Under the pieces are notes generated by a model. That model was not told the origin of the DNA. It saw nothing but the letters and a program-made list of their open reading frames with translations, and did no database searches. 64,000 nucleotides of DNA, taken from an uncultured Acidobacteriota bacterium (lineage in GTDB: Bacteria > Acidobacteriota > Thermoanaerobaculia > Multivoradales > UBA5704). Shown piece by piece: positions 27,102-64,000 of the stretch; position 1 is the stretch's first letter, and every line of letters begins with the position of its first letter. The translations under genes were made by a program, and so were the position numbers. Location of the stretch: assembly GCA_963761805.1 (NCBI GenBank), contig CAVXIV010000014.1, positions 362,692-426,691 on the forward strand, in the 5' to 3' direction.

Positions 27102-27263
27102 ATGAAGAAATCGCCCAAGAAACTCACGTTGGCCAAGGAGACCCTGCTTCACCTGGAGAGCGAATCCCTCGATAAGGCATTCGGCGGCGCTTGGGTGAAG
27201 ACCGTGGACGCGACCGCTTGCGTGACGAATTGCGCGGGCTGCCCCAGCTATCGAATCTGCTGA
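27102..27263 (+). CDS. Candidate RiPP/bacteriocin precursor A1 (53 aa, double-glycine leader, Cys/Thr-rich core)
   Basis: GGAG lies 8 nt upstream. Sequence MKKSPKKLTLAKETLLHLESESLDKAFGG|AWVKTVDATACVTNCAGCPSYRIC. It is hidden at the end of shadow ORF 26727..27263. Confidence 0.6.
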   Translation: MKKSPKKLTLAKETLLHLESESLDKAFGGAWVKTVDATACVTNCAGCPSYRIC

Positions 27264-27277
27264 AACCAAGGAGATGC

Positions 27278-27454
27278 CATGAAGAGATCCCCCAAGAAGC
27301 TCAAGCTGGCCAAGGAGACCCTTCTCAATCTGGAGAGCGGGCCCCTGGAGAAGGTTTACGGTGGTGTCGCGACTGAAAGGTCGGTGTGCGTCACCATCTG
27401 CGCGACGAACTGCAACGTCACAGCCTGCGCGACTGCCTGCCCTGGCTGCGCCTA
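27278..27454 (+). CDS. Candidate RiPP/bacteriocin precursor A2 (58 aa), paralogue of A1
   Basis: AAGGAG lies 5 nt upstream. Sequence MKRSPKKLKLAKETLLNLESGPLEKVYGG|VATERSVCVTICATNCNVTACATACPGCA. It is not in the ORF track. The leader is 21/29 identical to A1 and the core diverges. Confidence 0.6.
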
Positions 27455-27469
27455 GCCTGATGCTCTCTC

Positions 27470-27500: not shown

Positions 27501-28454
27501 TCAAATCCGTACCCCATATCTCGCCAGGATCGCGACCGTCAAAATCACATCGAACGCGATGATGTACATCCCCGCGTAGGTCTCCATCCGCTTGGCGGTC
27601 TTGCGGTTGGTATCGAACCGGTACTGGAAGAAGCCGATCAGACAGAGCAGGAAGAGCGCCACCAGGGCGGCATAGAACCAGGTGGACAGCCCCAGGTGCC
27701 AACCCACCAGGGCTACCAGGGCGGTGTCGATCACCCGGATCAGCAGGACCAGGTACGCGGCCCCGTACGTCCCGAAGATGCGCGTGTACGTCTCCACGCC
27801 CTCGATCTCGTCTTCGGGGGCGCGGATCTTCCGCGAGACTTCCCAGTTGAAGGTCACGAAGAAGCCCACCCAGGCATACATCCAGAACCAGAACGGCGCC
27901 TCCCAGGGCCACTGCCCCGTGGTGAAGCTGAAGACCATCAGCGAGAGCAGGGGCATCACCAGCAGGTGGCTCACGGCGTAGACCAGGAAGTGCCGCTTGA
28001 GCCAGTCGCGGACGAAGAACTCCTTCAGCATCAGGAAGGAGAAGACGAACGCCGCCAGCCAGGCCACGAAGGACGCCCGGCCGCCCAGGACGGAGAGGAC
28101 GATCTCCGTGGCGATGGCGATCCCGCCGAGAATCTTGAGGTCGCGCAGAGTGATGACGCCGCTCTGGAGGACGCGCTGGGGATGGTGGCGCAGGTCTTCG
28201 GCGTAGTCCTTGTGCTCGTCGAAGACCCGCAGGTGGAAGAAGAAACAGAACAGGGTCACGGCTCCGAGGAGGGTCGAGAGGTCGTAATGCATCGGCTCCC
28301 CCGGCTGGGTCAGGGCGCGGGCGAGGAACTGATTCGAGGAGTAATAGGCCGCGATCAGCACCCCGTGGCCCAGCAGCGGGAAGCGCTCCGCCAGATAGGC
28401 GGAGAGACGCCGGGGGAACGGCGATTCGCGGGTAAGGGCGGGGGCCGTGCTCAT
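27501..28454 (-). CDS. UbiA-superfamily prenyltransferase (divergent)
   Basis: 317 aa with about 8-9 TM segments. Asp-rich motifs FDEHKDYAED and APEDEIEGVETY. ATGA overlap with the upstream ligase. Confidence 0.65.
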   Translation of the reverse strand: MSTAPALTRESPFPRRLSAYLAERFPLLGHGVLIAAYYSSNQFLARALTQPGEPMHYDLSTLLGAVTLFCFFFHLRVFDEHKDYAEDLRHHPQRVLQSGVITLRDLKILGGIAIATEIVLSVLGGRASFVAWLAAFVFSFLMLKEFFVRDWLKRHFLVYAVSHLLVMPLLSLMVFSFTTGQWPWEAPFWFWMYAWVGFFVTFNWEVSRKIRAPEDEIEGVETYTRIFGTYGAAYLVLLIRVIDTALVALVGWHLGLSTWFYAALVALFLLCLIGFFQYRFDTNRKTAKRMETYAGMYIIAFDVILTVAILARYGVRI

Positions 28455-30016
28455 CCCTTCAGCAGCCGTTCGCGCAGGCGCGGATAGTCGATCTTGCTGT
28501 TGTGACGGGGATCGACCGGCATCGGATCGGCGGTGAGGCGGATCTCGTCCACCTCCAGACCGGCGGTCCGCAGGCGTTCGGCCACTTCCCGCTCGATCCC
28601 CTCCTCGTCGGTCTCGAGGACGACGACGACGCGCTCCCCCAGCGCCGGGTCCGGAAGGCCCACGGCGGCGGCGCGGCGGATGCGCGGGTCCTCCGCGCAG
28701 GCGGCCTGCTCGACGAGCTGCGGATGGACCAGCCCGCCGGCGCGGCGGATCGTGGAGTGGACCCGTCCCGCCAGCCAGAAGCGCCCCTCGCGGTCGAAGG
28801 AGCCGGTGTCCCCCATGCGGTGCCAGACGGCCTCGCCGTCCGCGATCTTGTTCTCGCGCACGGCCCGGGGGTTGCGGTAGTAGTCCCGGCAGACATGCTC
28901 GCCCGTGACCACCAGCTCTCCGATCTCGCCGGCCGGAAGCTCCCAGTCCGCCCAGCCTCCGTCTCCCAGCCGGATGGAAGCGCCATGGATGCGCACGATC
29001 TTCGCCCGCACCCGCTCCACGGGCCGGCCGGCGCAGAAGCCGGGGGTCAGCGGCCGGTCCTGGTTGATGGCCTCCAGCCGCTCCTCGGCGGTGAGGTGAG
29101 CCACGGGCTCGGCTTCGGTGGAGCCATAGGCCACCAGGATCTCGGTCCCGGGAAAAGCGCGCCGCCAGTCGCGGAGCTGGGCGTCGGCGACGGGAGCGCC
29201 GCCGGTCAGGGCGCGGCGCAGACCGGGCACGTCCCCGTGATGGCGGCTCACCTCGCCGGCGAGGCGGTCGAAGAAGGGGGGCGAAGCCGTGCAGGTGGTG
29301 ACGCCATGGCGCCGCATCTGGGCGAGGACGCGGGCGCCGTCCACCTGGTCCACGCGGCGGAAGTCCATGTCCGGCACCACGGAGGGGACTCCCGTGGCCA
29401 GGTTGTTGAGGGCGAACACCGGGAACATGGGCATGTCGACGTCGCCGTCCTCGGCCGAAAACTCGGCGGCCAGGGCGCGATGCTGGGCGAGAAGGAAGCC
29501 GTGGGTGCGGTTGGCGCCCTTGGGCTCGCCGGAGGAGCCGCTGGTGAAGGTGATGAGCGCCGGATCGTCCGGTGCGGCCGGATGGACCTCCCCGTCGCCT
29601 TCCGACTGCTCCAACTCGTCCAGGGCGCAGCCCGCCGGCAGCGGCCCCAGACGCCAGCCCGTGGTGACGGAGAAAGGGATGGACCGCAGGGGCCGCGAGA
29701 GCAGCCGCAGCAGGTGGCTCTTGGGAATGCCGATCCAGGCCCGGGGCTCCGCGAAAGCGGCGAAGGCGGCGATCTGCCGGCGGCCGATCCAGGGGTCGAC
29801 GAAGACCGCCACCGCTCCCATGTGCAGCACGGCCAGCATGGCCACGTAGAGATCGATCGACATCGGGATCATGACCACGGCCCGGTCCCCCGGCGCGAGG
29901 CCCAGACCGCGAAGCCCGGCCGCGGCGCGAGAGACGCGGTCCCAGAGATCGCCGAAGGTGATGGAGCCGTCGTCCCCTGTGATCAGCGCCGGCCGCGCCG
30001 GATGGCGGGCAGCCAT
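28451..30016 (-). CDS. Adenylate-forming enzyme (acyl-CoA synthetase/fatty-acyl-AMP ligase-like)
   Basis: Motifs TFTSGSSGEPKG, YGSTE and GDTGSFDREGRFWLAGR. Start set at ATG 30016. The listed start at 30241 adds 75 Arg/Pro-rich residues that overlap the amidohydrolase. The true start may be non-canonical, slightly upstream of 30016. Confidence 0.75.
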   Translation of the reverse strand: MAARHPARPALITGDDGSITFGDLWDRVSRAAAGLRGLGLAPGDRAVVMIPMSIDLYVAMLAVLHMGAVAVFVDPWIGRRQIAAFAAFAEPRAWIGIPKSHLLRLLSRPLRSIPFSVTTGWRLGPLPAGCALDELEQSEGDGEVHPAAPDDPALITFTSGSSGEPKGANRTHGFLLAQHRALAAEFSAEDGDVDMPMFPVFALNNLATGVPSVVPDMDFRRVDQVDGARVLAQMRRHGVTTCTASPPFFDRLAGEVSRHHGDVPGLRRALTGGAPVADAQLRDWRRAFPGTEILVAYGSTEAEPVAHLTAEERLEAINQDRPLTPGFCAGRPVERVRAKIVRIHGASIRLGDGGWADWELPAGEIGELVVTGEHVCRDYYRNPRAVRENKIADGEAVWHRMGDTGSFDREGRFWLAGRVHSTIRRAGGLVHPQLVEQAACAEDPRIRRAAAVGLPDPALGERVVVVLETDEEGIEREVAERLRTAGLEVDEIRLTADPMPVDPRHNSKIDYPRLRERLLKG

Positions 30017-60755: not shown

Positions 60756-61448
60756 GTGTCCAAAACCGTCGACGTGGTGATTCCCGCGCTGAATGAAGAG
60801 GCTTCCCTGCCTCTCGTCCTGAAGGACATCCCCCATCCGCCGGTGCGCCGCGTCGTGGTGGCCGACAACGGCTCGACGGACGGCACCGCCCGGGTGGCCC
60901 GGGAAGGGGGCGCGGAGGTGGTGGCGGCGGCGCGGCGGGGCTACGGCAGCGCCTGCCTGGCCGCCCTCGACCACCTCCGCCGCACCGGCCCGCCGGACGT
61001 GGTGGCGTTCGTGGACGCCGACTACTCCGACCACCCCGACGAGCTGCCGCGCCTTCTCGCCCCCATCCTGGCCGGCGACGCCGACCTGGTGATCGGCTCG
61101 CGGGTGCTGGGGAACCGCGAGCCCGGCGCCCTGCTGCCCCAGGCCCGCGCCGGCAACCTCGTGGCCTGTCTGCTGATCCGCCTGTTCTACGGCCACCGCT
61201 TCACCGACCTGGGTCCCTTCCGCGCCGCCCGCTGGGACGCCCTGGAGAGCCTGGAGATGTCGGACCCCAATTTCGGCTGGACGGCGGAGATGCAGGTCAA
61301 GGCCGTGCGGCGGGGACTGCGGTGCGCCGAGGTCCCCGTGTCCTACCGCCGCCGGGTGGGGATCTCCAAGATCACCGGCACGGTCTCCGGCACGATCCGC
61401 GCGGGCTATAAGATCCTCTGGACCGTGGCCCGCCACATTGGAAAATGA
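60756..61448 (+). CDS. Family 2 glycosyltransferase
   Basis: VDVVIPALNEE...ADNGSTDGT...DADYSD (DxD). 230 aa, GTG start. Confidence 0.8.
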   Translation: MSKTVDVVIPALNEEASLPLVLKDIPHPPVRRVVVADNGSTDGTARVAREGGAEVVAAARRGYGSACLAALDHLRRTGPPDVVAFVDADYSDHPDELPRLLAPILAGDADLVIGSRVLGNREPGALLPQARAGNLVACLLIRLFYGHRFTDLGPFRAARWDALESLEMSDPNFGWTAEMQVKAVRRGLRCAEVPVSYRRRVGISKITGTVSGTIRAGYKILWTVARHIGK

Positions 61449-61481: not shown

Positions 61482-61898
61482 ATGACCGAGCCCATCCGTA
61501 CCGCGATCGACATCGAGGTCCGCTACGCCGAGACCGACCAGATGGGCGTGGTCCACCACGCCAACTACATCGTCTGGTTCGAGCTGGCCCGCACGCGGCT
61601 CTGCGCCACTTCCGGCTTCCACTACGCGGACATCGAGCGGCTTGGCTATCTCCTGATGGTCACCGGTGTAGAGTCCCGCTACCACCGGCCGGCCCGCTAC
61701 GGCGACGTGGTGCAGGTCCACTGCTGGTGCGAGCGGCTGGGAAGCCGCGGCCTGCGTTTCGCCTACGAGGTCCGCAAGGGAGACGAGAAGCTCGTGACCG
61801 GCGCGACCGAGCACATCTGGATTGAAAGGGAGACCGGCCGCCCCTGCAGGACACCGGAGCCTCTGCGGGAGCCTTTCATGCGGCTGGCAGGTTTATAA
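61482..61898 (+). CDS. Acyl-CoA thioesterase, 4HBT/YbgC-like hotdog fold
   Basis: VRYAETDQMGVVHHANY, with the catalytic Asp near the N-terminus. 138 aa. Confidence 0.8.
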   Translation: MTEPIRTAIDIEVRYAETDQMGVVHHANYIVWFELARTRLCATSGFHYADIERLGYLLMVTGVESRYHRPARYGDVVQVHCWCERLGSRGLRFAYEVRKGDEKLVTGATEHIWIERETGRPCRTPEPLREPFMRLAGL

Positions 61899-61904
61899 TT
61901 ACTT

Positions 61905-63374
61905 ATGGATTCAGAACGCCACCGTCAATATCTTGAAGCCCTGGCGCGCCGCGCCATGGAAGAAAAGGGATTACAGTCCGAATTCTCGACGGCGGCCCTG
62001 AAGGAGGCGGAGGGCCTCTCTCCCGCCGGCCCCGACGGTCATGGAGTCCGCGACCTGCGCGGCCTTCCCTGGTGCTCCATCGACAACGACGACACCCGCG
62101 ACCTCGACCAGCTCACCGTGGCCGAGCCGCTGGGCGGCGGCGCCACCCGGGTGAGGGTCGCCGTCGCCGACGTGGACGTCCTGGTGGACCAGGGCTCGGC
62201 CATCGACGAGCACGCCCGGACCAACACCACCTCGGTCTACACCGTCGCCCGGGTCTTCCACATGCTCCCCGAGCGTCTGTCCACGGGTCTGACCTCCCTC
62301 AACGAGGGCGAGGACCGCCGCGCTCTCGTGGTGGAGTTCGTGGTCCAGGAGGACGGTGCGACGGCGGACGAGGACGTCTACCCCGCCGTGGTCCACAACC
62401 GCGCCAAGCTGACCTACACCGCCCTGGCGGCCTGGCTGGATGGCGCCGGCCCCCTGCCGGAAGGCATGGCCGGCGTCCCGGATCTCACGGAGCAGATCCG
62501 CCTCCAGGACGCCGCCGCCCAGCGCCTGCGGCGGCTCCGCCACGAGCGGGGCGCCCTCGACCTGAGGCGCAACGACGTCCACCCGGTCCTGCGCGGCAAC
62601 CGGGTGGAAACCCTCCAGAACGACGACAGCGACCGGGCCAAGGAGCTGATCCAGGACTTCATGATCACGGCCAACTCCACCATGGCCCGTTTCCTGGAGT
62701 CGCGGCGGCTGCCGTCGCTGCGCCGCATCGTCCGCCAGCCGCGCCGCTGGGACCGCATCGTGGACCTCGCCCGCCAGACCGGAGACCGGCTGCCTTCGGA
62801 GGCGGACTCCCAGGCCCTGTCGGAGTTCCTGGCGCGGCGGCGGGAGGCCGCGCCCGACGCCTATCCCGAGCTCTCTCTGGCGGTGGTCAAGCTCATCGGC
62901 TCCGGCGAGTACGTGGCCGACCTGCCGGAGGACCCCGCGCCCGGCCATTTCGGGCTGGCCGTGGAGGACTACACCCACGCCACCGCCCCCAACCGGCGCT
63001 ATCCCGACCTCGTCACCCACCGCATCCTCAAGGCGGCCCTGGCCGGGCGCCCCACGCCCTACGGCTCCGACGAGCTCCGGGAGCTGGCCCGTCACTGCAC
63101 CGGGCAGGAAAACAACGCCCAGAAGGTGGAGCGCCAGGTCCGCAAGTCCGCGGCGGCCCTGCTGCTGGAGGACCGCCTCGGCGACACCTTCCGCGCCGTG
63201 GTGACCGGCGCGTCCGAGAAAGGCACCTGGGTGCGCATCTTCCACCCCCCCGTCGAGGGCAGGCTGGAGCGCGGCTTCCAGGGGCTCGACGTCGGCGACT
63301 GCCTGACCGTCCGCCTCATCGACCTCGACGTCGAGCGCGGATTCATCGATTTCGCCCGGGAGAGACATGGCTAA
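61905..63374 (+). CDS. RNB-domain exoribonuclease (RNase II/R family) with a C-terminal S1-like domain
   Basis: CSIDNDDTRDLDQL, HFGLA...YTHATAPNRRYPDLVTHR, and a C-terminal beta-rich segment. Confidence 0.8.
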   Translation: MDSERHRQYLEALARRAMEEKGLQSEFSTAALKEAEGLSPAGPDGHGVRDLRGLPWCSIDNDDTRDLDQLTVAEPLGGGATRVRVAVADVDVLVDQGSAIDEHARTNTTSVYTVARVFHMLPERLSTGLTSLNEGEDRRALVVEFVVQEDGATADEDVYPAVVHNRAKLTYTALAAWLDGAGPLPEGMAGVPDLTEQIRLQDAAAQRLRRLRHERGALDLRRNDVHPVLRGNRVETLQNDDSDRAKELIQDFMITANSTMARFLESRRLPSLRRIVRQPRRWDRIVDLARQTGDRLPSEADSQALSEFLARRREAAPDAYPELSLAVVKLIGSGEYVADLPEDPAPGHFGLAVEDYTHATAPNRRYPDLVTHRILKAALAGRPTPYGSDELRELARHCTGQENNAQKVERQVRKSAAALLLEDRLGDTFRAVVTGASEKGTWVRIFHPPVEGRLERGFQGLDVGDCLTVRLIDLDVERGFIDFARERHG

Positions 63375-64000
63375 GAAGAGTCCGGAACGCCCCTACGCTC
63401 CAGCGGAGTTCTTCGCTTTCCGCACCCCCCTGCTGCCCTACGAAGAGCTGGAAGCCTGGAGCGCGGGACTGGAAGCGCCGGCGGCCGCCGGCGATCCGGA
63501 ACGCCTGGAAGAGGCGGTGGCCGCCGACCGCCAGCGGCTCCGCGCCCGGCTGGCCGCCCTGGCCGAGCGGCCGGAGATCCGCGAGGCGGTCTTCCTCGCC
63601 TCCCCGTCCCTCCATGAAAGCCTGGCGGCCTGGCAGAAGGACCCTGGAAGCAAGAAGGGCCTGCGGGCCGAGAGGGCGCTGGTGCGCTACTTCTACCGCA
63701 TGGCCGCCCGCGCCACCCCCTTCGGCCTCTTCTCGGGCTGCTCGGTGGGCCGGGTCGACCTCCAGCCCGGCTCCTCCACCCGCATCGCCGTGGCCCCCCG
63801 CTCCGCCTACGAGCGGCACACCCGGCTCGACATGGACTACCTCTTCGCCCTCTGCGAGGACCTGGTCCGCGACCCCGCCGTCCGCGAGACGCTGGTCTGG
63901 CGCCCCAACTCCAGCCTCTACCGCGCCGCCGGCCGGCTGCGCTACGCCGAGGCGCGGCTGGAGGGCAAGGCGCGCTCCCACCACCTGGTGGCCGTGGATT
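63367..64000 (+). CDS. Lanthipeptide/thiopeptide-type dehydratase, LanB N-terminal domain (partial; continues beyond the window)
   Basis: MAKKSPERPYAPAEFFAFRTPLLPYEEL...YFYRMAARATPFGLFSGCSVGRV... The F-x-x-RTPLLP and ATPFGLFSG motifs are characteristic of Lant_dehydr_N. The start overlaps the RNB gene stop by 8 nt. It is not in the ORF track because it has no stop within the window. Confidence 0.7.
   Translation, partial: MAKKSPERPYAPAEFFAFRTPLLPYEELEAWSAGLEAPAAAGDPERLEEAVAADRQRLRARLAALAERPEIREAVFLASPSLHESLAAWQKDPGSKKGLRAERALVRYFYRMAARATPFGLFSGCSVGRVDLQPGSSTRIAVAPRSAYERHTRLDMDYLFALCEDLVRDPAVRETLVWRPNSSLYRAAGRLRYAEARLEGKARSHHLVAVD

Follow-up and report, generated by a model that had tools for sequence, protein, structure and literature searches.

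The window analysed here is a stretch of 64,000 nucleotides (nt) from an uncultured Acidobacteriota bacterium of the class Thermoanaerobaculia (GenBank assembly GCA_963761805.1, contig CAVXIV010000014.1, here contig C14; G000:C14:362692-426691), the assembly comprising 8.06 Mb in 26 contigs and being 88.5% complete. At its right edge begins the gene for a class I lanthipeptide dehydratase (LanB), which is complete and intact and encodes a full-length enzyme of predicted activity. This LanB probably serves as a hub dehydratase that acts in trans on about 48 dispersed precursor peptides (LanA), two of them encoded in the window, and would be a class I counterpart of the prochlorosin system. The evidence consists of direct observations on the identity and intactness of the enzyme, copy numbers, synteny, the common leader type of the precursors, and the co-occurrence of enzyme and leader across genomes.

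The LanB gene and protein

The open reading frame (ORF) starts with ATG at 63367 on the + strand and has no stop by 63999, with 211 codons inside the window. The earlier note had placed the start here, overlapping the stop of an RNB-family exoribonuclease gene (RNB), and had read two LanB motifs in the translation; all of this was verified. The RNB stop codon TAA lies at 63372-63374 (junction sequence ...GAGAGACATGGCTAAGAAG), which gives the two genes an 8-nt overlap, and the motifs FFAFRTPLLP and ATPFGLFSG form residues 15-24 and 116-124. In addition, the 211-amino-acid (aa) fragment matches Pfam PF04738 (Lant_dehydr_N; E = 2.3e-34, 119 bits vs a cut-off of 28) over profile positions 1-142 of 649.

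Beyond the window the frame stays open: the whole gene occupies G000:C14:426058-429384 (L008:2059-5385), ends at window-equivalent position 66693 and encodes 1108 aa, and an early end of the ORF, for which the earlier note had allowed, was not found. Residues 67-731 match PF04738, the glutamylation domain, over positions 1-646 of 649 (E = 3.9e-169), and residues 824-1094 of the same polypeptide match PF14028 (Lant_dehydr_C, glutamate elimination; E = 1.1e-70). Both domains bear out the proposed dehydratase identity, and their fusion settles the form of the enzyme, left between full-length LanB, split LanB and small LanB or PEARL (peptide aminoacyl-tRNA ligase), in favor of the first. The match to TIGR03891 scores 236 bits; the closest solved structures are MibB (5EHK; 8e-50), 9G04, and NisB (4WD9).

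Aligned to NisB, LanB has the same residue at each of the nine catalytic positions. R83, R87, T89, D121, D299, and R464 of NisB, which we take to be the glutamylation residues identified by mutagenesis of that enzyme, correspond to LanB R111, R115, T117, D155, D342, and R524, the first four of which fall inside the window. The elimination residues R786, R826, and H961 correspond to R875, R918, and H1070; in NisB the substitutions R786A, R826A, and H961A each abolish elimination (PMC4979651).

A genome-wide domain search returned one LanB N domain and one C domain, and thus a single LanB. The gene is under purifying selection, with ratios of nonsynonymous to synonymous substitution rates (dN/dS) of 0.23-0.38, intermediate between those of aroC and RNB. 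More than 120 clusters at 90% identity, mostly from metagenome-assembled genomes of Thermoanaerobaculia, match it over its full length at 62-95% identity; an exact look-up of the sequence found no record. The enzyme is an ordinary member of the LanB family.

Dispersed precursor peptides

Two precursor candidates at 27.1 kb had been described in the window. Both are real ORFs of leader type (Table 1), but they are not the only candidates: a regular-expression scan, followed by a hidden Markov model (HMM) made from its matches, yielded 48 distinct small leader-type ORFs on 16 contigs of the genome, the window pair included. The leader consensus is MKKxxKKLxLxRETLRxLxxxxLxxVAGG; it reaches 41.6 bits at best with the NCBIfam model NF038153 ("lant_leader_L1a, class I lanthipeptide"; cut-off 22), with the window pair at 21.1 bits (27102-27263) and 19.4 bits (27279-27455), both under the cut-off. 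The pair ends 35,912 nt ahead of the LanB start.

The cores contain 15.6% Cys and 21.6% Ser + Thr. Ser + Thr equals or exceeds Cys in 47 of the 48, the two counts covary (rho = 0.67, p = 2e-7), and a Cys stands within the last two residues in 35 of 48 precursors. Pairwise identity averages 0.54 among leaders and 0.33 among cores. Nearly all of the genes have an AAGGAG Shine-Dalgarno sequence 5-9 nt ahead of the ATG. Upstream of the 45 that start with ATG, only this sequence was enriched as a common DNA motif; -10-like TAnAAT boxes were visible by eye without forming a single motif, and no regulon signal comparable with the LanB operon was found.

Near-identical 5' untranslated regions (...CTTCTTCAAAGGAGACCTGAATG) were seen in five precursor genes (C14:580552, +; C14:580921, -; C16:333907, +; C18:239177, +; C23:714172, -), and the peptides of C14:580921 and C16:333907 are themselves near-identical; this points to recent copying of whole promoter-UTR-gene units (UTR, untranslated region) as the route by which the family spreads. 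Near-identical precursor genes with near-identical upstream DNA also occur at C2:8036-8221, about 8 kb from the start of its contig, and at C6:194766-194951, at the end of its contig; possibly the two are copies of one repeat at which the assembly broke.

Enzyme and leader in related genomes

Flanks of 20 kb were examined around LanB orthologues of 45-60% identity. In 12 relatives, genes for peptides with a match to the same leader HMM (1e-10 to 1e-13) are found no more than a few kb from the orthologue, together with a LanC cyclase gene; the usual order is LanA-LanC-LanB. One cluster (L047) has two LanA and two LanC, and in another (L042) three LanC are accompanied by several LanA whose matches to the leader HMM are weaker (E = 5e-4 to 0.1). 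The precursors next to LanB thus carry the leader type of the 27.1-kb peptides, and not an unrelated leader of the FNLD type, the outcome that the earlier note had named as speaking against a link.

Among 201 genomes of the class, 28 have a LanB match and 173 have none. The leader was found in 20 genomes, all of them LanB-positive (20/28 vs 0/173; Fisher p = 1.7e-21); counted by genus, it occurs in 7 of 14 LanB-positive and 0 of 66 LanB-negative genera (p = 1.1e-6). A place for LanB among the core genes of the class was rejected, with only 28 of 201 genomes matching. Leader counts, taken from at most 41 scored candidates per genome with a leader model built from this clade, are 1-2 in most genomes, at least 41 in the genome under study, at least 41 in G020, 35 in G041, 29 in G097, and 21 in G153. 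All five genomes have one LanB orthologue each, so that the pattern of one LanB and many LanA recurs in four other genomes from three genera. LanB of G041 is also isolated, flanked by gcvP and an ABC importer; stand-alone LanC number three in G041 and two in G153.

Trans action of LanB on the peptides at 27.1 kb, which the earlier note had put forward as a possibility, receives good comparative support from orthologous LanB that adjoin same-leader precursors, and the peptide encoded at 27102-27263 is a likely trans substrate.

Three genomes have two LanB paralogues each, with 51-61% identity to the LanB under study (G103, contigs C27 and C159; G131, C2 and C6; G133, C11 and C7). At least six tandem leader-type peptides (27577-28991) stand beside one of these, on G133 C7, a way to many precursors through clustering instead of dispersal.

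The LanB site and the unlinked putative partners

A class I lanthipeptide, thiopeptide or PEARL locus had been expected to continue past the window, with LanC or precursor genes downstream. No such locus is there. The chorismate synthase gene (aroC; 1.4e-103) starts 14 nt downstream of LanB, and the ten downstream ORFs scanned continue with two beta-helix proteins, a methyltransferase, and polysaccharide-type genes. Genome-wide domain searches place LanC and exporter on contigs other than C14, on which neither was found, and going downstream from LanB on C14, the first leader-type peptide is reached after about 151 kb.

The site is conserved in the close clade (nine relatives, LanB identity 64-78%). 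LanB adjoins aroC in all nine and follows RNB in eight, the upstream gene in L022 being SelA; the 8-nt overlap is kept in L020, L021, L050, L051, and a same-genus genome (L036). What varies is the slot between LanB and aroC, which may hold a LanC, an intact LanA or a leader-only stump, or stand empty as in the genome under study (Table 1). The stump, a 34-aa ORF at L053:8358-8462 (-) in a relative with 64% LanB identity (MNEEKTKKLTLTKETLRQLDLTDPKKPAAAPPLS), has kept the leader and lost the Cys/Ser/Thr core; it is apparently a decayed precursor in the slot that is empty here. The site-specific LanC of relatives is absent from the genome. Its relocation was rejected: the best LanC of the genome are 44-50% identical to the same-genus site LanC, vs 71-78% for LanB, which argues that the site LanC was lost and not moved. 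A promoter and terminator scan of RNB-LanB-aroC gave no signal above chance, which is compatible with a single transcript and no proof of one.

The genome has 11 LanC-like matches, all off C14. Stand-alone LanC are found on C2, C5, C12, C16, and C17, each with an adjoining LanA and none linked to LanB. The single C39 peptidase domain belongs to a 761-aa ABC exporter (C16:397497-399782).

Two further ORFs on C23 bear on this inventory. At C23:116182-117201 (-) lies an ORF of 628 aa in which a DUF4135 (LanM dehydratase) domain is present and a LanC domain absent; it is possibly a stand-alone or split class II dehydratase. At C23:1334654-1336027 (+) a 457-aa LanC-like protein bears a signal of the twin-arginine type (MSAPLTRRDLLRLGMTAGIALPLG...) and is probably exported. 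No leader-type peptide is encoded close to it, and it is probably not a lanthipeptide cyclase.

Proposed mechanism

LanB would glutamylate Ser and Thr residues by means of Glu-tRNA(Glu) and then eliminate glutamate. Its gene would have been fixed between RNB and aroC in this soil lineage of Thermoanaerobaculia and inherited vertically, while the cyclase and precursor genes seen beside it in relatives would have been deleted from the site. One shared enzyme would then dehydrate in trans the whole precursor set, the window pair included, all with one leader type and with hypervariable cores. The rings would be closed in trans by the approximately five unlinked stand-alone LanC, each of which has a precursor of its own beside it, or would form spontaneously; leader removal and export would fall to the C39-peptidase ABC transporter on C16. 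It is about as likely as not that some soil Thermoanaerobaculia run a prochlorosin-like combinatorial library by class I chemistry. One promiscuous, vertically inherited LanB, placed within a housekeeping operon, would there mature, with one C39 exporter and a few free-standing LanC, from 21 to about 48 hypervariable precursors per genome, whose scattered single genes would be transcribed independently.

Alternative explanations

Several points weigh against a trans-acting hub. Only 5 of the 48 precursors adjoin a LanC, which leaves the other 43 without a cyclase gene beside them. The genome has two intact LanM, and a leader-like peptide (leader HMM E = 5.9e-6) lies 765 nt upstream of the one on C10, so class II enzymes may process some leader-type peptides. 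None of the sequencing runs that hold part of the locus is RNA; the 24 found are soil, root, and rhizosphere metagenome runs, probably of DNA. At the completeness of the assembly, unassembled DNA could harbor a further LanB, or the site-specific LanC that is missing. The leader-positive genomes fall in seven genera and are phylogenetically non-independent, and with a leader model built from this clade and at most 41 candidates scored per genome, divergent leaders in LanB-negative genomes could escape.

Some of these points would also fit a humbler role, in which LanB is left over from a broken-up cluster and serves at most a few LanC-linked precursors, most orphan precursor genes being unprocessed, silent or decaying. 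The few LanC-linked peptides and the lack of RNA runs agree with it, as do the deletion of LanC and LanA from the site here and in L020 and the decayed stump in L053. We nevertheless regard it as unlikely: the orphan peptides have intact reading frames and strong Shine-Dalgarno sequences, the balance of Ser + Thr over Cys is kept in all cores but one, one LanB with many LanA is found in four other genomes from three genera, and LanB is under purifying selection. Somewhat less probable again is that it is chiefly the two LanM (class II) synthetases that process the dispersed peptides, with LanB reserved for a minority or for a different substrate. Such an arrangement has precedents in ProcM and SyncM, with their many remote substrates (PMC7268733; PMC9872173), and could draw on the peptide near the C10 LanM and on a weak association of LanM with the leader (odds ratio 4.7, p = 0.002). 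That peptide, however, is among the weaker leader matches, and in relatives the leader-type peptide adjoins LanB and LanC, not LanM. LanM (DUF4135) occurs in 42 genomes of the class, yet it is missing from ten leader-positive ones, among them G041 (35 leaders) and G153 (21), and 32 LanM-positive genomes are without the leader. As a general partner of the leader family, LanM was rejected on this co-occurrence across the 201 genomes.

The conserved site itself suggests another thought, namely that LanB was recruited together with the translationally coupled RNB to a role outside ribosomally made, post-translationally modified peptides (RiPPs), such as Ser/Thr dehydration of a cellular protein or a tRNA-linked function. 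The 8-nt overlap and the aroC neighbor are kept throughout much of the close clade, LanB is unusually conserved for a RiPP enzyme, and a link between an enzyme that uses Glu-tRNA and RNB enzymes, which act on RNA, is conceivable to us. We judge this very improbable, given that RNB is replaced by SelA in L022, that the orthologues further removed belong to ordinary LanA-LanC-LanB clusters, in which RNB and aroC are absent, that LanC or LanA recurs in the slot ahead of aroC, and that LanB presence tracks the leader peptides. A thiopeptide or PEARL locus, at which the NCBIfam name of the C-terminal domain might hint ("thiopeptide-type bacteriocin biosynthesis", TIGR03891), has next to no probability. 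The elimination domain in the same full-length ORF argues against a small LanB or PEARL; one PF14028 domain in the whole genome means that there is no separate pyridine synthase, and the pyridine-synthase model NF045556 scores 13.7 bits vs a cut-off of 325; no azoline-forming, non-ribosomal peptide synthetase or peptide-extension genes were seen among the ten downstream ORFs scanned, no search for YcaO having been made. Both identities are ruled out for the LanB locus by domain content.

Comparison with known systems

With NisB, MibB (4WD9, 5EHK), and the 9G04 LanB, the enzyme under study shares the Lant_dehydr_N and Lant_dehydr_C domains and, with NisB, the full catalytic set. Those enzymes belong to compact clusters with LanA, LanC, and LanT/LanP and recognize FNLD-type leaders, whereas the LanB gene here has only RNB and aroC for company in its operon, and the leaders that go with its clade are of the LxLxKx5L...GG type. 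Walker et al. (PMC7268733) described the latter type in class I precursors of Bacteroidetes that occur with C39 proteases. Pinensin (Chitinophaga), Ped15.1/15.2 (Pedobacter lusitanus; PMC12328550), the thalassomonasins, and the viridisins (VdsCB/VdsA1-3) have it as well, along with separate LanB and LanC and a C39-type protease or exporter; in that group two or three precursors with a common leader lie inside the enzyme (LanBC) operon (PMC9680876). In the present genome, by contrast, 48 precursors are spread over 16 contigs, LanB, LanC, and LanT are all unlinked, and the phylum is Acidobacteriota (Thermoanaerobaculia).

In layout the closest likeness is to the class II systems of marine picocyanobacteria, in which one enzyme faces tens of remote precursors: 29 for ProcM (prochlorosins) and as many as 79 for SyncM. 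These precursors combine a conserved leader with hypervariable cores, and many of their genes are far from the enzyme (PMC7268733; PMC12328550; PMC9872173). Those rely on a bifunctional LanM, with phosphorylation and a fused cyclase, and on Nif11-type leaders; here a predicted Glu-tRNA-dependent LanB would be combined with separate LanC. The leader family tracks LanB and is of the NF038153 L1a type, not the Nif11-NHLP type of ProcM-like LanM systems. The layout of one enzyme with many remote precursors has so far been described only for that other enzyme class; a literature search brought up neither a class I example nor any work on LanB of Thermoanaerobaculia.

If such a class I library exists, its LanB would be the first one known from nature to serve many substrates, and the strategy of one enzyme for many peptides would have a second, independent origin. 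ProcM and SyncM have shaped ideas on the evolution of relaxed specificity; a class I counterpart would mean that the strategy also arose with Glu-tRNA-dependent chemistry and separate cyclases. Cluster-based genome mining, which looks at a few genes around LanC or LanB, would report LanB here as an orphan and overlook almost all of the 48 precursors. A naturally promiscuous LanB steered by a short, well-defined leader would be a candidate engineering tool. The relatives would also present a readable series from compact to dispersed: LanA-LanC-LanB clusters, LanB with LanC or LanA at aroC, LanB with a leader stump, and LanB alone.

Neighboring genes and further features

Table 1 Features in the window and contents of the LanB-aroC slot in the genome under study and its relatives. 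Positions are those of the window. GT2, glycosyltransferase family 2.
Feature	Position or genome	Strand	Evidence
Leader-type precursor 1, 53 aa, MKKSPKKLTLAKETLLHLESESLDKAFGG / AWVKTVDATACVTNCAGCPSYRIC	27102..27263	+	Leader HMM 6.8e-12; alignment A1 8.2e-13; AGGAG Shine-Dalgarno
Leader-type precursor 2, 58 aa, MKRSPKKLKLAKETLLNLESGPLEKVYGG / VATERSVCVTICATNCNVTACATACPGCA	27279..27455	+	Leader HMM 1.2e-12; alignment 6.9e-12; AAGGAG Shine-Dalgarno
GT2 glycosyltransferase	60756-61448	+	ORF; same order in L021, L052, L053
4HBT thioesterase	61482-61898	+	ORF; 83% identical in L021
RNB-family (RNase II/R-like) exoribonuclease, 489 aa	61905..63374	+	RNB 2.3e-83; S1 (RNase_II_C_S1) 3.7e-19
LanB dehydratase, 5' part (211 codons)	63367..64000	+	PF04738, PF14028, NisB alignment
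LanB-aroC slot: tail-to-tail LanC	L021, same-genus G097, L050, L051, L052		
LanB-aroC slot: intact leader-type LanA	L022, L050		
LanB-aroC slot: leader-only stump, MNEEKTKKLTLTKETLRQLDL...	L053		
LanB-aroC slot: empty	Genome under study, L020		

The block aspS/hexapeptide/GT2/4HBT/RNB/LanB/aroC is common to the genome under study, L021, L052, and L053; the GT2 and 4HBT genes are synteny context and not biosynthetic partners. Of RNase R/II, the RNB protein resembles the catalytic and S1 parts alone, with scores far under the equivalog cut-offs, and it seemingly has no N-terminal cold-shock domains. About 7 kb past LanB, a 1716-aa ORF without a Pfam match (L008:12374-17524, -; C14:436373-441523) is surrounded by glycosyltransferase, sulfotransferase, and aminotransferase genes.

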